A stretch of DNA of 42,170 nucleotides from Jimgerdemannia flammicorona (Eukaryota): positions 1-42,170 of the forward strand of contig RBNJ01000094.1 of the NCBI GenBank assembly GCA_003990765.1, given 5' to 3'. Below, piece by piece: positions 4,420-32,549 of this stretch; the first letter of the stretch is position 1, and each line of letters begins with the position of its first letter. A program made the translations under genes and the position numbers. The notes beneath the pieces were generated by a model. It was not told where the DNA came from. It worked only from the letters and a program-made list of their open reading frames with translations, and ran no database searches.

Positions 4420-4506
4420 TGTAACATCAGTGTCGGGAAAAGTGCATTCACGTGGATGGGATAATCCCGTCCACGTGAATGCACTTTCCCCGACGCTGAT
4501 GTCACA
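4420..4506. repeat. Dispersed palindrome copy 1 (87 bp, centre 4463)
   Basis: TGTAACATCAGTGTCGGGAAAAGTGCATTCACGTGGATGGGAT-A-ATCCCGTCCACGTGAATGCACTTTCCCCGACGCTGATGTCACA. Confidence 0.97.
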
Positions 4507-13717: not shown

Positions 13718-13795
13718 TGTGATGTTGTCGTTGGGGAAAGTACATTCACGTGGACAGGATTATCCCATCCACGTGAATGCACTTTCCCCGACGCT
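13718..13795. repeat. Dispersed palindrome copy 2 (centre 13761; right arm shorter)
   Basis: TGTGATGTTGTCGTTGGGGAAAGTACATTCACGTGGACAGGAT-T-ATCCCATCCACGTGAATGCACTTTCCCCGACGCT. Confidence 0.97.
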
Positions 13796-17347: not shown

Positions 17348-20300
17348 ATGCCAAATAATAAGCAACCGCAACAATTTGATGATAGTAAAAACAGACGGAT
17401 ACGACACAACTCCAACCAACCACCGCTGCTACTACACCGCCTGCATTGGATGTGCCCACAGGCTCCGATCATAAACTGTGAGAGCGATGAACTCATGTTT
17501 CAGCAGATGGATATTCGCGTAGAGTTTTGCAATGGCGAGGAGATCGTGATCATGATTGGAACAACTATTGAGGGGTATAGTGTTATGTGTCGGGTGTGCG
17601 GATTTAGACTATATTTTTATATCTGCGCGCCCAACACTGTCCAACGGGACAATCTACCATTGTTGGTAGCATGGCTGCAATGGTATGTAAATGTGTCTGT
17701 GTGCAACTGTAGGATTGTTGATAGTAGAGACATATACAACTACACAGGGTCAGGCTTGGAACCATTCATTAGGTTCACCACTGCAACGGACGCCACTAGA
17801 CAACAACTGGTGAATTTTATACAGAATTGAACAGTCTTTGGTCCGCCCAGTTGCACCATTGTGCGTGATGGCAAATTGTATAAAAGCGATGTGAGTCCGG
17901 ATCTGCGATTCATGGTCGACCACACGATAACCAGGGCCGGATGGGTGCGAATCCCTGCTGGAAATTACATGTTGTGTGTCTCACGGACATCACACTGTCG
18001 GTATGAAGTCGAAACAGACGTCAACGCAATCCAGAGCGTGCCCTACAACTCCTGTGACGCGGGTTCATGCATCGCGCCCTTGCGGGTACTGAGCTTCGAT
18101 ATCGAGTGTCGCGGTCACAAGGGCATTTTTCCGGAGCCCGAACATGACCCTGTCATACAGATTGGCTGTGCTGTGGCTGTGTTGGGTGTGGCAGACCCAC
18201 CCAAACGCGTTGTGTTTGTGCTGGGGGGGTGCACCATGCCACTCGACGATTGCGAAGTGCGGGTACACACCTCTGAGAAGGCACTCCTGCTCGACTGGTA
18301 CCGGTTTGTGGTGTACGAGGTCGATCCAGACGTGCTGACAGGCTACATGATTACCAAGTTCGACATCCCATATCTGATTAACCGTGTGTGTGCATTGGGT
18401 ATTGAGCATACATTCGCACAGCTGGGCCAGATTGTCGACAGGGAAACCACAATCAACCAGAATGTTACAAAGACCAAGGCATATAGTATCAACAACACAA
18501 ACAAAATCGACATCGCGGGCCATCTACTGCATGATATCTATGATATGGTCTGTCTCGATTACAAGCTCCCTGGTGGAAACAAACTCAATGACATCTGCAA
18601 GCACTACCTTGATGGTGAAATGAAGGTGGACCTACACCACAGCATGATCACGCCGCTGCACGACGGCAGTAGCGATGACAGACGAAAACTAGCCGAGTAC
18701 TGCATATAGGACGCGACACTACCATTACTACTGATGGCGCGATTTGCGAGTATGACTAAGTATATTGAGCTGGCGTGCATCACAGGTGTACCATTCGCAT
18801 ATTTGTTACTGCACAGCCAGCAGATCCGGGCCATGTCACAATTCTATCGAAAGACACGTGAACTGAACTATCTCATTCCTGTATCCGATCCTGTCAAGGG
18901 TGTTATCGCAAATGGGCCACAGTACCAGGGCGCGAAGGTGCTCGACGCGACCCCTGGCTACTACCAAGTGCCAATCTGCATGCTTGACTACAGCTCGCTG
19001 TACCCGACCATCATGATCGACAACAATCTGTGCTACAGCACAATCGTCGACACTACCACGATTGTGCGTCTGCAGCTTGTCAAGGATGTAGACTACATTA
19101 CAATCAGGGGTAACGAAGCTGATGCCACAACCGACCATCACTTTGTAACCCCATTACAATGCAGGGGCGTCGTGCCACAGATTCTTACAACACTACTTGA
19201 CTGCAGGAACGCGGTCAAGAAAGAGCTTAAAGACGAAGGCGACGCTCTGAAACGTGCAATTTTAGATGCGCGCCAGCAGGCAATGAAGCTCTGTGCAAAC
19301 TCACTCTACGAGCTGACAGGCGTTGCCGGCGGAAAGCTTGCAAGTCTTGCAGTCGCCACCAGTGTTACAGCGAGTGGTCAAGGCATGATCAAACGGGCGA
19401 AATCGATGATTGAATTTACCTTTACCATCACAAAAGGCGAGAAACACGATGCCCAGGTGGTGTATGGCGACACAGACTCTGTGATGGTTAATTTTGGACC
19501 AATATCAGTTGCAGACACAATCGAACTCAGCAAACGTGCTGCAGGATTGCTGTCCAACATACCCGGTCATCGCGAGACGTTGAACTTCGAATGGGCATTC
19601 ATGCCATTCCTGCTTGTTGGTAAAAAGTGCTATGCAGGGCTGACGGGGGTCAATAACAGTTTGGTCATCAAAGGCATCCAGACTGTAAAGCACGACACAA
19701 GTGAGTATATTGCCACGACCGTTGAACGGTGTCTTGAGATCCTGTTTGCCAGCCCACAAGGTGGGCTCGATGCAATGACAATGCACATCAAGGACAAGAT
19801 CTGGGTGCTATTGCAAGATGAGCTTGATCCCGCTGTATTTGCTATTACAAAACAGTGGAATGCATCTCTGGTGTCGATGGCCCCAGGCCGACATGCACCG
19901 GGCCTAACAAATGGCACAGGCCCGCGCCAGAGAATCATGAAGGCTATGAGTTCAAAAATCCAACTACTGCTACAAGCAGATGTTCAACAGCAGCAGCCAC
20001 ACATCGCTGCTACCATCAGGAGTAGGTTAGTTGATGCGCCCGAATGTGGTGATCATGTCACATATGTGATTACAGCCAAAGCTGGAGGTGAGTGAGTGAA
20101 ATATACTAGTGTGATTATATATGAATATATATATATATGTGTATACTAATATTCAATAGTAAAATGTATAAGCAACAGGGCTGTACTGCTCCAGAGTGTG
20201 CTCGAGGATTGTCTGCCGATAGATCAGGACTACTACCTCCAGAGTTTGATACGACTACTGCTGACGATGTTCTCACCCGTGTTTGGTGGTGAAAAACGAA

Positions 20301-21202: not shown

Positions 21203-21442
21203 TATTGATACAATAATCAGTTAGTAAAACAAAATGGAATTTATATCTTTAAGTTGCATTATACATACAGTATATCACACTCTGGATTTTGCAAGTTTAG
21301 TGGTTGTGTAGTAAAATACACCTTGTTACCAGAGCTAATTTGTGCCATAGAGGTTGATAGTAGCTCAGAGCATAGGTAGGCGAGAACTACCTTAGATATG
21401 AAATACTTTAATGACATACTGAGTAATTATAAAGTGTGTCAT

Positions 21443-21525
21443 TCACGTCATCGTCAGGGAAAGTGCATTTATGTGGATGGGATTATCCCGTCCACATGAA
21501 TGCACTTTCCCCGACAATGACGTGA
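21443..21525. repeat. Dispersed palindrome copy 3 (83 bp, centre 21484)
   Basis: TCACGTCATCGTCAGGGAAAGTGCATTTATGTGGATGGGAT-T-ATCCCGTCCACATGAATGCACTTTCCCCGACAATGACGTGA. Confidence 0.97.
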
Positions 21526-21772
21526 CCGCCTTGTGTGCCTAATGGCTGTTGAGTTATCACTATTATCCTTCTTTAGAAGTACTATCATTCACGTACAACA
21601 CATATTGGGAAGATCAACATTGCTATTAAGACATGTGGCGAATGCTTTGCATTTGTGTCTATACATAGTACCGAGTTATATAGTTATACCATAGTATTGA
21701 CAGTCCCTAAGCTGACCATGGTTTACAATAAATAGCAGGTGTAGATATGCCGGAATCAACACTAACACCACC

Positions 21773-23928: not shown

Positions 23929-24229
23929 TATATACCCAATAAATATATTTGTCGAGTGATACTCATGGCCATGAGTCCATATTTGGTATTTTACAACCAG
24001 AGTTTATTGAACAGATATGAAATGTGTCTGACACAGTGTTAATGAATTTTTGGTGTTAAATATAATTTACTACAAGTATACCTACATCTATATACACAAA
24101 CTAAACTTCTGAAACATCGGATTACATTGGGAAATTAGCCAGAATACATTCGATGAGTTGTAGATAAATCATGACTGCTTTTCATGTGGTGCACCGAGTC
24201 TGGACTCGATGCTGTATTGAGTGTGTCAT

Positions 24230-24312
24230 CCATGTCATCGTTGGGGAAAGTGCATTCACGTGGATGGGATTATCCCATCTACGTGAATGCACTTTTCCCA
24301 ACAATGACATGG
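24230..24312. repeat. Dispersed palindrome copy 4 (83 bp, centre 24271)
   Basis: CCATGTCATCGTTGGGGAAAGTGCATTCACGTGGATGGGAT-T-ATCCCATCTACGTGAATGCACTTTTCCCAACAATGACATGG. Confidence 0.97.
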
Positions 24313-24986: not shown

Positions 24987-25043
24987 GATAAATGTCAAAA
25001 TAAAATGGTATAACCCATTGGACAAATACTCTTAAACTATACA

Positions 25044-26093
25044 ATGGCTGTTGCAATGCGAAGTATGAGAGCAAGAACGCGGTCGCAGATGCGTGGACAA
25101 CCATGGATTGCAAGCTATGATGTTCTATCTAAGAAGCGAGTGTGGCAACGTCAGGTAACACTGTTGCAAACTGATAATACAGTTGATGATATTGCAATGA
25201 CAGTCATTGCAACGCCAATGACGATATCAACAATACACCCATTACCGTCACCACCAAGCATCTGTACAACCGATACCACAACAATCTGCATTGTGGCTAT
25301 TATGGCGGTTACAACAATATGCGCTGCTACTCCGGCAGTTATAACAATATGCACTGCTACTCTAGCAGTTACAACAATATGCGCTGCTACTCCAGCAGTT
25401 ACAACAATATGCGCTGCTACTCTGGCAGTTACAACAATATGTGCTGCTAATATAGCAGCTACAATAATATGCACTGATACTTCTGTAGCTACAACAACAA
25501 CAGACACTGCTACTACAGCTACAACAAAAAAAGTCCAAAGACAAACCCAGTTGTTAACCAGACTGCATAATATACACGACAGGTTGAGTATAGATCCCAC
25601 CATTAACAATACCATTGTTAACGATCACAATGTGGGCATCATTCGGGCAAATCTATACAACATTCGACTAGCTGCATACATTGCACAATATCAATATTTG
25701 CATAATATCAATACGCTAACTCCGAGACAGAAGGGTTGTATGTTCTTTGAGGCAGAAAGGACGTTTCGCGACACACAGTTGAAGAGCACAGACAAACCTA
25801 TGGAAATATATAACTTTGATAGCAAGTATCGCAGTGCCCGAGCAACATATCTTCGTTTTGTTCAGCAGTTTGGATTTGGTGTTGTGCTTATCTCCAAAAC
25901 CACCATAGGCAGTTTTGTTGATATATCACAGACATTACTGGATGCAAATATGCCCAATACTACAGTAGTATCACAATATTATATGAAATTTACTAGTGCA
26001 CATTGTAGAACAGCTATTATTGGGGAGCTAGTGAAGATCATCAATGATCTGACTAAAGTTGAAGCTGAGTTTGTAATGATGTTTGGTATATAG
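25044..26093 (+). CDS. Hypothetical protein with Thr/Ala repeats and C-terminal helical domain
   Basis: Intact 349-aa ORF. Confidence 0.6.
   Translation: MAVAMRSMRARTRSQMRGQPWIASYDVLSKKRVWQRQVTLLQTDNTVDDIAMTVIATPMTISTIHPLPSPPSICTTDTTTICIVAIMAVTTICAATPAVITICTATLAVTTICAATPAVTTICAATLAVTTICAANIAATIICTDTSVATTTTDTATTATTKKVQRQTQLLTRLHNIHDRLSIDPTINNTIVNDHNVGIIRANLYNIRLAAYIAQYQYLHNINTLTPRQKGCMFFEAERTFRDTQLKSTDKPMEIYNFDSKYRSARATYLRFVQQFGFGVVLISKTTIGSFVDISQTLLDANMPNTTVVSQYYMKFTSAHCRTAIIGELVKIINDLTKVEAEFVMMFGI
25304..25500 (+). repeat. Coding minisatellite, 30-bp unit (AVTTICAATP/L), about 6 copies
   Basis: GCAGTTACAACAATATGCGCTGCTACTC.. in tandem. Confidence 0.9.
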
Positions 26094-26305: not shown

Positions 26306-27016
26306 ATGGCATACTGTACGAGATTCACAACTCAGAAGGTGGCTATCGCAGCGGGGTGTAAAAATGGAACTTGTAGTCCATCCCCCGCTATCTTAGCAGG
26401 GGGTAAAAAAAGAACTCGTAGTTCACCCCCTGCTATCTTAGTGGGTGAAAAATGAACTCGTAGTTCACCGCCAGTAGATGATGACAATGACGGTTCACAA
26501 TCACATATCAGTGAAACTCCATCCAAAGAGTTTGATGTTAACCACACAACACAAAGTGAGTATATATATATATATATTATATATACATAATTATTGGTAC
26601 ATATTATCTAATTCTAACATATATTCATAGACCGAGATCTAAACAGAAACCAACTAGCTGATGAAATACAAGAATTGAAGAATATCATCACATCTATCAA
26701 CAATCGGAATTTGAACGTGGGAAAACAAATGGCTAAACTACGTGGAAGAATACAGAGCCTGGAACGCATAATTGCCAAATCTCAGTATACGGAGATAGAG
26801 ATAGACTTAAATCGTGAAGATGTGGATATATTTAAAACACACACCCTTGCAAGTTTGGAATATGCGAATACACGTGCGACAAGGATTTTAAATCGGCTAG
26901 ATTATATAGAAACACGAATTGATGACCTAGAGAGTACGAGCCACTCTGAGTTGTCAGGTACTATAGATGATAATGATACTGAGAGTAGTTACAGATCAAA
27001 ATGCCAACAAAAATAA
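26306..27016 (+). pseudogene. Coiled-coil protein with 3x ~45-bp repeat (AILAGGKKRTRSSPP); intron 26556-26630; in-frame TGA 26453-26455
   Basis: ATG 26306; a phase-1 GTGAGT..CATAG intron splices in frame to ORF 26675-27016 (heptad pattern). The stop lies where the adjacent repeat has Arg. Confidence 0.6.
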
Positions 27017-27343: not shown

Positions 27344-30062
27344 TCATTCAGAAGTTTGTTTGCGTTTTGTTTCTGCTGCGACATGATCTCTTTTTAAGAG
27401 TACCGTCATTCATCTACAACACATATCTGGAGTTCTACCTGGAATGTCCACCAAAATTGTTATCCAACTGCATCCATGCTCATTGTGACATTGGTGCAAC
27501 AGTATATCTTCGTCAGATGTCCATTGTGTCTTCTTCTTAATCGATACACCTAAAGCATTTTCTCATCTATATTGATAGTTATGACTCTCCTTCCCTGGAA
27601 TCGTAGATGCTATCTTCTCCCACTGACGACCATGTAGTGTATATGCCTTCCACAACAGTTTGTCATCATCCTTTGTCCATGTAGTAGTAGTTTTGATATC
27701 GCTTGTTACAGCTGTTGAGATATATCCTCTAGGCTTAGTACATAGATATCTGTAGATATTATACAATTACAAATTAGAATATAGGCATATATTATATTTC
27801 TGTAAAATTCAATAATAGCATACCTAACCAAGGCCTCTCTCTTTTGTATATTGGGAACTGTTTGAATAATATCATCAATTATAGTAGATGATACACCAAC
27901 AACGACTGGTCCATTTTCTATTAAAATTGTCGTAGCTCGTTGTTCAAGCTCTGCGGCAGTTGTCTGTTTAGATATCTCATAATGTTCAAGTTTGAGTGTG
28001 CGCACTCTTATAAACCACAATAGCTTTTGGTATTGTTTGAGCAGATCAGGTGCCTCTTTGGTCTAATAAATAGTAAGAGAGTGTATATATATGTGAGGAG
28101 ATGATGATGATGTATTAGATATTCTAAAAAAATAAAACCCTTACTAGATAGTGCCATCTTCGTATCCCTAACGGATTTAGTTTTTTTTTTAATTTAGCTA
28201 CATCTTCCTTCCATTTAATGATGGTAGTATCTGTCTCTTAGAGTCGCTGTTGAGTTGTCTTGGATTGAAGTACAGGTGATGGGATCTGTACTAGTGGAGC
28301 CCTGAATGCAATCACATCATCGTGATGTTGTGCTGAGGCATCAGAACCTAACATCGCTCCCATTATGTTAACACCTACTGGTCGTGTATAGTACATATGT
28401 AACATATTAGATTTGGGTGAGTGATATAGTGCTTGCTTTGCTTTGGCATCTCCAACCCTCTTGGAAATTGCATCAGCTGCACTTCGGTGAAACATATAGG
28501 CTGAAAATGACTCTATATAAACAGAGTTCTTATTAGAAATATGAACATAGATTAATATACCATATATATACATTATTATATATACCTGCATATCCAGCCT
28601 TTTGTGCGATAAGTGATAAAAAACTATCAAACAAATTTGTTGTAAGAGGACTATTTCCAGCAGCATTCTGAAATACTGTAGTGTTCAGTATCTCTGGTGC
28701 CCATTCAATAGTGGTATATTTAGACTGAAATAGATCTTCCAGAGTTGTGAATGCTTTAAAGGCACTACATCGAATAGCCCAGGTGATAAGCATAATGATA
28801 GGACACAGGTCTAGTTTTTGGGCATCCTGTACTGGTTGTATAATCCATGAAAGTCTGTGTAATAATAATAATAATAATAATAAATTAATATAATATAAAT
28901 ATTTACATAGACCAATTATAAATATTATACATACGGTGCTTTGCCTCCTTTCACAGTACGAAATACTATTGTTGCATGGAAAACTGGACCCAGTTTATCT
29001 AATCCCTCATATGTCAGCTTGATGTCCTATATCAAATCATATATCAATATCTCTCAAATAATATTGTGTGTGTGTGTATGTGTTAATAAATAAATAAATA
29101 AAATACCAAACATACACTCCATTTCAAGGCTCTGTCATGTTGATGGTGTATAGTACTTGAAATAAGAGATCCTGGCCAGACGGCTGTAAACATCATTAAC
29201 AGCCACAGTGTAATGTGTTTAAATGTAAGATCCCAGTCACGGTTATTTTTGTGTGCCTCCTGCACCAAAACATGAAGCTCTGATTCACCAATAAATGTTT
29301 TAGGCTTTTGAGTTGTTGTAAGATTGCGCTGAGTTGCAATCATATCAACTGCCTGCAAAATAATATATGTATTTAATTTAGTTGATATGTATATATAATA
29401 AAACATCTCTATAAGTAATAATAATAACAATTATTCATACTTGGGTAATTTGTATTTTATCACCATCAGAGAGTTGAAAGTGTTCGACATCTTTCCATAG
29501 CTATAATAACAAATATTAGAACAAGTCTAAATAATATTATAAATAAAAAAACGAATTGGATAATATACATACTAGTTTTAGTAATAACGTCTTAGTTGTC
29601 ACTAAATATTCCTTCGACATAGGTGTTTTATTCGGGCTTAATGTTGTCATTGCTTTCGCAATCAGGAAGCTCTTTATATTGTCTGAGAATGAAATATAAT
29701 GTTAGTAAAAATAAATAAATAAATAAATATATGAGATGCTCGCAGATGTCAGCAATTATATTTTACATACCCACAGTCGCATGTTGAATAGTCCATGCTG
29801 CCGCCTTTGAAACTCCATTAGCTTCCATATACTCGTTCCATTGTCTAGTAACTAGGTCGTGGTTCCGTTTGGTTAATGGTGATCTCGTATCAAAGTCGTT
29901 GGCTTGTGTACTTAGAGTCTTGATTTCCGTGAGTTCGCTGGCACCCAGGAGTGCAAATTTGTTCAATCGTCTTGCACCGGGGGGTTTGGGGCTCACCCGT
30001 CTCGCCGCACGGGACAATTCTGTGCTCTTGGTTGAAGATCCTCTCTGTTTTACAGGAGCCAT
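27344..30062 (-). pseudogene. Multi-exon tyrosine recombinase, DUF3435/Starship captain-like, with two C-terminal Myb/SANT repeats; inactivated
   Basis: Motifs in order: LLMMFTAVWPGSL (R>W of RPG), ALKWS|DIKL, FRTVKGGK, LDLCPIIMLITWAIRCSAF, SAYMFHRSAA, ALYHSPKSNMLHMYY. Then WTKDDDKLLWKAYTLHGRQWEKIASTIPGK..YR*ENAL and WTSDEDILL..HGCSWITI..IPGRTPDMCCR*. Introns 28513-28585, 28063-28144 and 27729-27823 are phase-consistent. Three in-frame stops. Confidence 0.8.
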
Positions 30063-30073
30063 AGTTGGAAGAG

Positions 30074-30123
30074 GTGGCAGTGGTGGTGGTGGTGGTGGTG
30101 GTGGCGGTGGTGGCGGCGGTGGT
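30074..30123. repeat. (GGT/GGC)n microsatellite just upstream of the recombinase ATG
   Basis: About 16 trinucleotide units. Confidence 0.95.
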
Positions 30124-30158
30124 AGTAAAGAGTAAACAACTATCCTTGTGGAAATAAA

Positions 30159-30642: not shown

Positions 30643-32549
30643 CTAAATCTGCTTCACTTTCTTCATAGGCTGGTTCACAATTCCCATCAACATCCTCGCA
30701 ACCTGAACCAGTGCGCTTCCTATTCCAAACACTGTTCCAACCAATGCTATCATCAATACCGCATACAAATCGTAATTCCCGGCTTTCCACCACGTCATAC
30801 TCTTATCCGGCGATTGCAAGTGCATTAACCCAGTTCCTCCATACATCACCTCCTCCACTATATCCGCCCCACGCTCTACCCGCCGTGACCCGATCTGTGC
30901 CAGCGCCTGCATCCGGCTCATGTTTCCCGCGAAAAATCCTTCGGGGTCCTCGACCAACCGCCGGATCTTCTCAGTCACCTCCGTCACCGTCGCCGTGTCA
31001 CGATCAATTTGTAGCGCCACACCGGCGCGATGGAGTTTGACCGCATTCATAGGCTGATCTCCGAAGTATGGTTGCACCAGTAGCGGGGTCCCAGTATACA
31101 ACGCCTCGTGCGTCGACTCCACGCCGCCATGCGAGATGAAGAGCCGAGTCGACGTGTGGTTTAGGATTGCCTGCTGTGGTGCCCATGACGTGAAATGGAA
31201 CGCCGGATGTCCGTTCGCCAGCAGGTCCGCTGTCTTCAGCTCGATCGTCCCGTTCACATTTCCGCTCACCACAGTGATCGTCAATGGAAAATCGGCCGAC
31301 CGCGTCTGCACAATCGCCCAGATCACGCCGTCTACCACGCCCGTGTGGACAGAGGTTGCCAGGGCCGTTAGGAGCACGCCCAAAGTTCGCGAGGACGGAG
31401 GGACTTTTTGGCCGAAGGCAACATAGATTACGCGACTGTGTTTCGTGAGGAAGGTGCTTAATGGGGGAGTGAGGCTCGGGTATGCATCACCCATCACAGG
31501 GCCAATGAGGTGCACAAGGGGACCAATTGGGCGGGGAACCTGGAGGATGTAGGAGGTTTGCACATCGGGAGAAAAGTAGGGTGACGAGGTCAAACACTAA
31601 TTCAATCTGTTTCGAACCAAAAAGATGAGAACAAATCTGTTACCTCGAAACCAAAGAACGTATTAACTAGTTTCACGCTATTCTCCCACCGCCCAGTCAA
31701 CACGCCCCACACTGGCGGGACGCCCATCTTGACACGTTGCTTGTTCAGCTCCGCTATGCTGGGATAGAAATAATACAACGCTTGGGTGGGCATAATGATC
31801 TGGGAGTACAACCGTTGCAGGAGGTTCTGGTTCTTGGTCGTCGGCTCGATTGATAAAACATTATTGGTGTAGGGCGCGCTGCCGTCTGTAGAACGAACGA
31901 GATCGAGACGGACGGATCAATAAAAGACATATCGCATGAGCGAACCATATTGAAGGGGCGGAGGAATGGAAAATCCTGTCCATTACGTACCTGGAGACAT
32001 TATTACAGATGTCAAGATCACGAACGGAATCCCTGCCATATGCGCTGCATCAAAACAAACCTCAAGCATGCTCTCACACAACACGACGTCTGGCTTAATC
32101 TCGTCAAATATTTTTCTATACCCCAAATAGAGCCGTTCATACGCCGCATTCATATCCCTCATCATCGTGCTCAGTTGCCGCACATCCAAATTCCTCCCCT
32201 CGTCAAACATTAATTTCCGAATTTTTTCCTTATCAATGACCAACGGCCCGATTGACACAGTCGGGAGACCCCACGGACGAGCGAGATTCAGCTGCCCGTC
32301 GTTAGTCACGTACGTGACCTGGTACCCGCGCTCGCGCAGGATCACTCCGATGTCGAAGCCCGCCTTAATGTGCGAGATTCCACCCGTTTGGGACGATATC
32401 ATCACATGCTTGGAAGTGCGGTAGGAACCGGACACGAGGCCGTGCGCCGCGCTGGGAGTGGGGGCTCGGAAGAGGAGGAGGAGGAGGAGGAACAGGAGTG
32501 GTAGGATACGCAGGTGGCGCGGCCAGGTTGACCAATGTTGGATGGGCAT
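30643..32549 (-). CDS. UDP-glycosyltransferase (GT1/UDPGT) with signal peptide and C-terminal TM helix; exons 32549-31991, 31885-31644, 31539-30643
   Basis: Signature WAPQQAILNHTSTRLFISHGGVESTHEALYTGTPLLVQPYFGDQ, N-terminal GGISH..LRERGYQVTYV, hydrophobic leader and KKVKQI tail. No stops; CpG-rich. Confidence 0.95.

Follow-up and report, generated by a model that had tools for sequence, protein, structure and literature searches.

A decayed DUF3435 tyrosine recombinase gene of Jimgerdemannia flammicorona that most likely ended in a pair of Myb repeats

Do the tyrosine recombinase motifs and the tandem Myb repeats that lie next to each other in a 42,170-nucleotide stretch of the Jimgerdemannia flammicorona genome (assembly GCA_003990765.1, contig RBNJ01000094.1, positions 1 to 42,170 of the forward strand; hereafter, the whole stretch is called the window) belong to a single gene, and what kind of gene would that be? 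The original prediction, drawn from the nucleotide letters alone, had placed at 27344-30062 a captain-like tyrosine recombinase fused to two Myb repeats, and had assigned it to a distinct lineage probably outside Ascomycota; the host does belong to another phylum, the Mucoromycota (Endogonales). In our view, the locus is probably a pseudogenized copy of a small multi-copy family of tyrosine recombinase genes of the DNA-transposon type (DUF3435, the Starship captain family), the intact ancestor of which would have been one nine-exon gene with a C-terminal Myb module.

The segment 27344-30062 was found to extend exactly from the stop codon to the ATG of a multi-exon gene on the minus strand (30062→27344), as had been claimed. 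The nine exons total 2073 nucleotides (nt) in a single frame, giving a conceptual product of 690 amino acids (aa), and all eight introns are of the GT..AG type, are 72-89 nt long, and have GC contents of 11-26% vs 34-49% in the exons. Seven of the eight donors read GTATG or GTAAG, that of intron 6 being GTATAT, and intron 1 contains TACTAAC and CAG. Introns 6, 7, and 8 are of phase 1, 0, and 2, respectively; the phase consistency predicted for the last three introns was thereby upheld, although the gene has eight introns in all and not three. In word-indexed protein searches with single exons, two adjacent public models, P0001 (BC938DRAFT_483945) and P0005 (BC938DRAFT_483944), were found to be 100% identical to the window. 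Three paralogs, P0002, P0003, and P0004, are represented by proteins only, and their contigs measure 2444, 2122, and 1114 bp; the joins of exons 2-3-4-5-6-7 were collinear with P0003, and the join of exons 7-8 with P0002. Second in-frame acceptors occur at 28501 (intron 6) and 27729 (intron 8), where the public models take 28513 and 27750. The intron 27729-27823 of the original prediction is accordingly in frame, its acceptor lying 21 nt downstream of the public one, and either of these two acceptors may be the one used. The true start of the gene is uncertain because the frame of exon 1 remains open upstream as far as 30383. A (GGT)n microsatellite (30078-30125) stands immediately upstream of the ATG, and the upstream open frame would encode a poly-Pro run there. 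The exons, from the 5' end of the gene, are the following.

29771..30062, minus strand: exon 1, with the ATG at 30062, aa 1-98, a basic N-terminus, 49% GC, and the donor GTATGT.
29573..29682, minus strand: exon 2, collinear with the N-terminus of P0003.
29441..29500, minus strand: exon 3, collinear with P0003.
29116..29352, minus strand: exon 4, with the first catalytic box, AVWPGS vs AVRPGS in P0003, and 63% identity to P0003.
28935..29026, minus strand: exon 5, a beta-hairpin with TVKGGK.
28586..28854, minus strand: exon 6, with the LCPII box, included in public model P0001 and matching PF11917 profile positions 99-158.
28145..28512, minus strand: exon 7, with the YMFHR box, His384, LHMYY (Tyr395 as the candidate nucleophile), and the post-catalytic helix, and with a TAA inside.
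27824..28062, minus strand: exon 8, a 79-codon linker with an open frame and the donor GTATGC, lying within public model P0005.
27344..27749, minus strand: exon 9, two Myb repeats (R2R3 type) and a basic tail, ending in the terminal TGA at 27346-27344; the alternative in-frame acceptor would give a start at 27728.

Exons 4-7 encode a DUF3435 (PF11917) tyrosine recombinase. Compared with the curated gathering cutoff of 25.8 bits, which refers to the whole-protein score, PF11917 gave 43.8 bits for P0001 (the public model of exons 6-7), 50.1 bits for P0003, 27.2 bits for P0002, and 37.6 bits for P0004; single exons alone fell under the cutoff (16.7 and 11.6-12.2 bits). The predicted family was thus supported, and the ESM Atlas model of P0003 (predicted template modeling (TM) score, pTM, 0.72) showed a TM-score of 0.72 to a DUF3435 cluster and of 0.57-0.63 to Phage_integrase clusters. 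A PDB sequence search with P0003 yielded no meaningful match. The epithet "captain-like" is loose: no cargo element and no inverted or direct repeats were found, and the PF11917 scores were modest (44-50 bits). The catalytic boxes are arranged in the canonical order, as had been described, but the RPG and Y..RR boxes are not intact in the window copy, reading WPG and Y.FHR; in P0003, the RPG, Y.YRR, H, and Y boxes are all intact. The window copy retains Lys259, His384, and Tyr395 at what we take, from the motifs, to be catalytic positions. The family thus has the residues expected of a catalytically competent recombinase, and the window copy does not.

On the evidence of its codons, the window copy is a pseudogene unable to work, carrying three nonsense codons and substitutions of two conserved Arg residues.

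28238..28240, minus strand: in-frame TAA at codon 445, past the catalytic part and before the linker, at a site where P0002 and P0004 have Gln.
27563..27565, minus strand: in-frame TGA at codon 618, preceded by AGA, where Myb repeat 1 should have its third Trp; aligned with a Trp of c-Myb.
27410..27412, minus strand: in-frame TGA at codon 669, likewise preceded by AGA, where Myb repeat 2 should have its third Trp.
29176..29178, minus strand: TGG, Trp213, at the first conserved Arg site (RPG box), giving WPG here vs R in P0003; a probable CGG>TGG change.
28487..28489, minus strand: CAC, His362, in the conserved RR pair, giving Y.FHR here; Arg at this site in P0002, P0003, and P0004.

The original prediction had noticed the two TGA codons and overlooked the TAA (28240-28238), and with it the pseudogene state. 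A short intron removing the TAA was considered and rejected because P0002 and P0004 code straight through that stretch.

As for the origin of this damage, the conserved RR pair reads HR in the window copy, RQ in P0002, and RR in P0003 and P0004, and the window product differs from P0002 at 28 amino acids, 23 of which are accounted for by one transition, three by one transversion, and two by more than one change. All of the transitions that could be polarized by P0003 or P0004, with the paralog codons taken as inferred from residues and not from DNA, were G:C>A:T (10/10; six in the window lineage and four in the P0002 lineage), and half of these (5/10) were at CpG. The CpG observed/expected ratio was 0.56 in the exons vs 1.03-1.12 in the neighboring region of a host UDP-glycosyltransferase. 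The damage thus appears to have arisen by G:C>A:T transitions of the kind that cytosine deamination typically leaves in repeats under silencing. Repeat-induced point mutation was rejected as the cause of decay: in the gene, (CpA+TpG)/(ApC+GpT) was 1.26 and TpA/ApT was 0.89, like the rest of the contig, as judged against the usual thresholds of these indices. Relatives were few: exon 6 searched against 1,835,955,588 representative proteins gave three matches at E<=0.001, one of them the window's own model, and word-indexed searches for longer proteins gave two of 84 candidates with exon 7 and two of 82 with exon 8. By their sequences, the window gene and its paralogs are a multi-copy family with damaged members.

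Since no element ends were found, we infer mobility, and with it the choice between "transposon" and "gene family," from the copies themselves, whose independent decay favors a repeat. The copy may derive from a Crypton-type element of small size, from a larger element led by a captain, or from a gene family that does not move. The CpG observed/expected ratio is 0.4-0.9 over the 30 kb left of the ATG and jumps to 1.0-1.2 over the adjoining 3 kb on the right, where the UDP-glycosyltransferase gene lies, and this switch at the 5' end of the gene is compatible with a boundary, being suggestive but not evidence of one. The host-like UDP-glycosyltransferase gene (30643-31596) ends at 30643, ~580 bp upstream of the ATG, and the neighboring open reading frames (ORFs) at 20-27 kb gave no Pfam family above cutoff. 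On a rather doubtful reading, the recombinase gene would even have led a cargo-bearing element, of which the decayed 30 kb on its left are a remnant.

The same locus might instead be a dead paralog of a domesticated, non-mobile host family that was derived from a recombinase transposon and serves as a DNA-binding protein or transcription factor, for which Gcr1 and Ndc10, derived from CryptonF, offer a precedent. Such a family would account for the eight host-like introns at positions common to the paralog models, for the conserved Arg lost in two of the three copies, and for the missing element ends, and an NDC10_II cluster (Mucoromycota) was among the Atlas feature neighbors of P0003, with a score of 0.94 and 154 common features, fewer than the 170 typical of the same family. 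However, P0003 retains RPG, Y..RR, H, and Y, and the copies on separate contigs decay independently through G:C>A:T changes and nonsense codons, a pattern more in keeping with silenced repeats than with a gene maintained by selection. Fungal Cryptons, moreover, reportedly carry introns according to their original description. We thus consider a domesticated host family unlikely and retain the decayed member of a transposon-type recombinase family.

As judged by profile matches, exon 9 is an R2R3-type Myb pair, both repeats of which have TGA in place of their third Trp codon in this copy. PF00249 matched it in two stretches, scoring 62.2 bits when the TGAs were entered as X and 64.2 bits when they were read as Trp, in which case the Pfam stretch 80-122 spans profile positions 2-45 of 46; the R2R3 region of c-Myb (1h88_C) matched it across both repeats with an E value of 1.1e-13. 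The Trp residues are spaced 19/19 in the first repeat (W580-W599-*618) and 19/18 in the second (W632-W651-*669), which places the two TGAs (27565-27563 and 27412-27410) at the canonical third-Trp positions. The tandem repeats and the conversion of both terminal Trp codons to TGA were therefore correctly recognized in the original prediction. An Atlas search with P0005 returned generic Myb clusters only, all with TM<0.4.

Most likely, the Myb module and the recombinase are parts of one gene, as far as the exon sequences and their relatives can tell, and the attachment of the module involves two joins. The recombinase-linker join is independently supported, because P0002, which lies on another contig and is 82% identical, reads ...QRLQETDTTIIKWKEDV...WHYL/AKETPDLL..., crossing both the TAA position (CAA inferred) and the exon 7/8 junction into the linker; the first 43 aa of exon 8 share 84% identity with the end of P0002. 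P0004 (44% identical) likewise extends beyond the catalytic part, with no stop through the exon 7 stretch. The linker of ~110 aa, composed of the end of exon 7 and exon 8, lies outside known families, exon 8 giving no match in the Pfam scan. As for the linker-Myb join, we infer it from the splice signals and matching phase (exon 8 ends in a consensus donor whose phase fits that of the Myb exon), from the absence of an ATG of its own in the Myb exon, where the first in-frame Met is at residue 109, after both repeats, and from a prediction on the same copy, the public model P0005, which joins the linker exon to the first Myb repeat. The fusion claimed in the original prediction thus gained support from P0002 for its first join, the second being a predicted one.

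A layout of two adjacent genes, one for the recombinase and one for Myb, would be similar to that of Pezizomycotina, in which DUF3435 captains are accompanied by MYB/SANT genes distinct from them (PMC12256816), or to the two-ORF layout of Harbinger. The public annotation has just such a pair of models, P0001 and P0005, and the exon 8/9 splice is a prediction; yet the break between the two models falls exactly on the TAA, where P0002 continues into the linker, and P0005 itself links the linker to Myb. The start of P0005 (28166-28214, minus strand) consists of five codons read in a different frame of exon 7 and a 34-nt GT-AG mini-intron, an annotation artefact to which the TAA gave rise. The recombinase and Myb parts are, moreover, collinear on the same strand with matching phases, and no in-frame ATG precedes the Myb repeats or lies within them. 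Two separate genes are accordingly improbable, more so than a domesticated host family, and a single gene interrupted by damage is the reading kept here.

That the gene is functional, its UGAs being decoded as Trp by a variant code, by programmed read-through with tRNA-Trp, or by adenosine-to-inosine editing of UGA to UGG, is scarcely credible: both TGAs do sit exactly at Trp positions in an AGA-TGA context and the Pfam score rises by 2 bits with W in place of X, but the other 18 Trp codons are all TGG, TGA also serves as the terminal stop of the gene, the public models follow the standard code, the in-frame TAA and the two lost arginines disable the copy as well, and the step from TGG to TGA is a G>A change, in line with the remaining lineage-specific mutations, so that the TGAs are taken as damage. 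Under G:C>A:T changes, only TGG, CAA, CAG, and CGA can be converted to stops (18, 24, 10, and 7 such codons, respectively, remain in the gene). The symmetry of the two TGAs is then a coincidence, perhaps aided by the AGA-TGG context common to both sites.

Several results weigh against the reading of the locus as a decayed copy of a one-gene, transposon-type recombinase-Myb family, and are collected here. No terminal inverted or direct repeats were found that pair the flanks of the gene with any part of the contig, nor was a second copy of the gene found in the window. The predicted exon 8/9 splice is seen only in this copy and its own public model, and the polarization of the transitions depends on the inferred paralog codons mentioned above. 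An intact homolog with the same fusion, which the original prediction had hoped to see, was not found: with the recombinase alignment A2 (4 sequences) searched against proteins of 574-2000 aa, 0/7997 scored candidates reached E<=0.001, a result that is in itself weak evidence, and in metagenome scans 0/72 pattern matches were confirmed with A2 and 0/151 with P0005. The AlphaFold model of the recombinase from the same alignment was of low confidence, with a predicted local distance difference test (pLDDT) score of 38.5, and the best match in a PDB profile search with A2, the integrase 3nkh_A, had a non-significant E value of 0.099.

Elsewhere in the window, a frame resembling the catalytic subunit of DNA polymerase delta (17831-20095, plus strand) carries PF03104 and PF00136 and matches yeast Pol3 (3iay_A) with an E value of 1e-80. 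It is broken by an in-frame TAG (18707-18709) in a conserved exonuclease motif (...EYCI*DATLP...), either because the copy is a pseudogene or because the assembly is wrong at this point. A palindromic dispersed repeat of ~80 bp occurs in four copies (4427-4499, 13722-13795, 21433-21526, and 24220-24311) and resembles a miniature inverted-repeat transposable element, its arms at 24230-24270 and 24272-24312 being 93% complementary. Six tandem 30-bp units (25266-25527) within an ORF at 25014-26093 encode a repeated ...ICAATPAVTT... peptide and gave no Pfam family. Three tandem 45-bp units (26342-26472), each containing a GAACT...AGTTC palindrome flanked by runs of G5 and C5, lie ~870 bp past the 3' end of the recombinase gene. 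At the far end of the contig (39756-42170, plus strand) are retrotransposon-like genes, namely gag with a zf-CCHC knuckle and dUTPase, in a region with a CpG observed/expected ratio of 0.07-0.2, far more depleted than the recombinase gene.

In the intact ancestor, an N-terminal, core-binding part (exons 1-3) would have been followed by the catalytic domain (exons 4-7), a helical linker of ~110 aa, and the R2R3 Myb module (exon 9). The recombinase would have cut and rejoined DNA via a phosphotyrosine intermediate, and the element would have been excised and inserted by recombination between short sequences identical in its ends and in the target, a mechanism demonstrated for Starships and suggested for Cryptons. 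By analogy, the Myb pair may have anchored the enzyme in a sequence-specific manner at the element ends or at the target, comparable to the anchoring in cis by GCR1_C of CryptonF and to that proposed in trans for the Harbinger Myb-like protein and the Starship MYB/SANT gene. The role in end or target recognition put forward in the original prediction is thus presumptive, resting on these analogous systems.

The locus bears on the origin of the giant Starships and on the role of their far-end MYB/SANT gene. It is conceivable, though rather doubtful, that the present family represents, within the Starship-captain/CryptonF recombinase superfamily, a branch in Mucoromycota that carries its Myb partner in cis, in which case the partnership would be either ancient or repeatedly assembled and DUF3435-type elements would occur outside Dikarya. 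If the R2R3 Myb is indeed built into it, the DUF3435 recombinase of Endogonales would be an outgroup with both functions in one polypeptide; such an outgroup would support the Myb as an end- or target-recognition module and would provide a compact system for testing that idea. Since the window copy is a pseudogene, its value is that of a pointer to a family and not of a working element.

Among the closest known systems is the "DUF3435/MYB hybrid" class of Pezizomycotina Starships, including Starship-Aory1, described in PMC12256816. Fusions of this kind, which the original prediction had supposed to be unknown, are thus already in print. According to the same source, MYB/SANT genes also occur on their own, as separate genes located at the far edge of Starships, and its authors propose, by analogy with Harbinger, that the Myb helps to recruit the recombinase to the element ends. 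The hybrids as described there and the window gene both pair a DUF3435 recombinase with a Myb/SANT module. They differ in that the host here belongs to the Mucoromycota and not to the Pezizomycotina, that PF11917 scores only 44-50 bits here, and that no cargo element or repeats were found. The likeness is one by text description, which gives neither domain order nor the number of Myb repeats, and does not imply common origin.

With the Starship captains (HhpA and its relatives), as described in PMC10104507, PMC9156397, and PMC11162782, the window gene has in common the Pfam family and the order of the catalytic boxes; mobilization by recombination at short matching sequences is presumably also shared, by analogy. 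A captain is required for Starship movement into a specific target consensus, as shown in PMC10104507. In a Starship as defined in these sources, the captain sits at the 5' edge, and the element as a whole is large, carries cargo, and is bounded by repeats, direct and often also inverted; no cargo element and no such repeats were found for the window copy, which is catalytically dead.

CryptonF, the outgroup of the Starship recombinases according to PMC11162782, which itself reports no Starship recombinases outside Dikarya, combines a recombinase with a C-terminal GCR1_C domain and has 6-bp direct repeats, as given in PMC3212892. By that account, CryptonF and the window gene agree in being a single intron-containing gene with the recombinase followed by a C-terminal DNA-binding domain; CryptonF elements are small, and their hosts include the zygomycete Rhizopus oryzae as well as Dikarya. 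The C-terminus differs, being an R2R3 Myb pair here and not GCR1_C, and GCR1_C (PF12550) matched no exon or model in Pfam scans at E<=1 and E<=0.01. In PIF/Harbinger, as cited in PMC12256816, a Myb-like module serves the transposase by binding the element ends, but there the enzyme is a DDE transposase rather than a tyrosine recombinase, with the Myb-like protein encoded in an ORF of its own, so the analogy is functional only. No report of a recombinase-Myb fusion outside Pezizomycotina was found among the papers listed in literature searches. The pairing of the two domains is already known from the Starship hybrids; what the present locus adds is a member in another phylum, the Mucoromycota.

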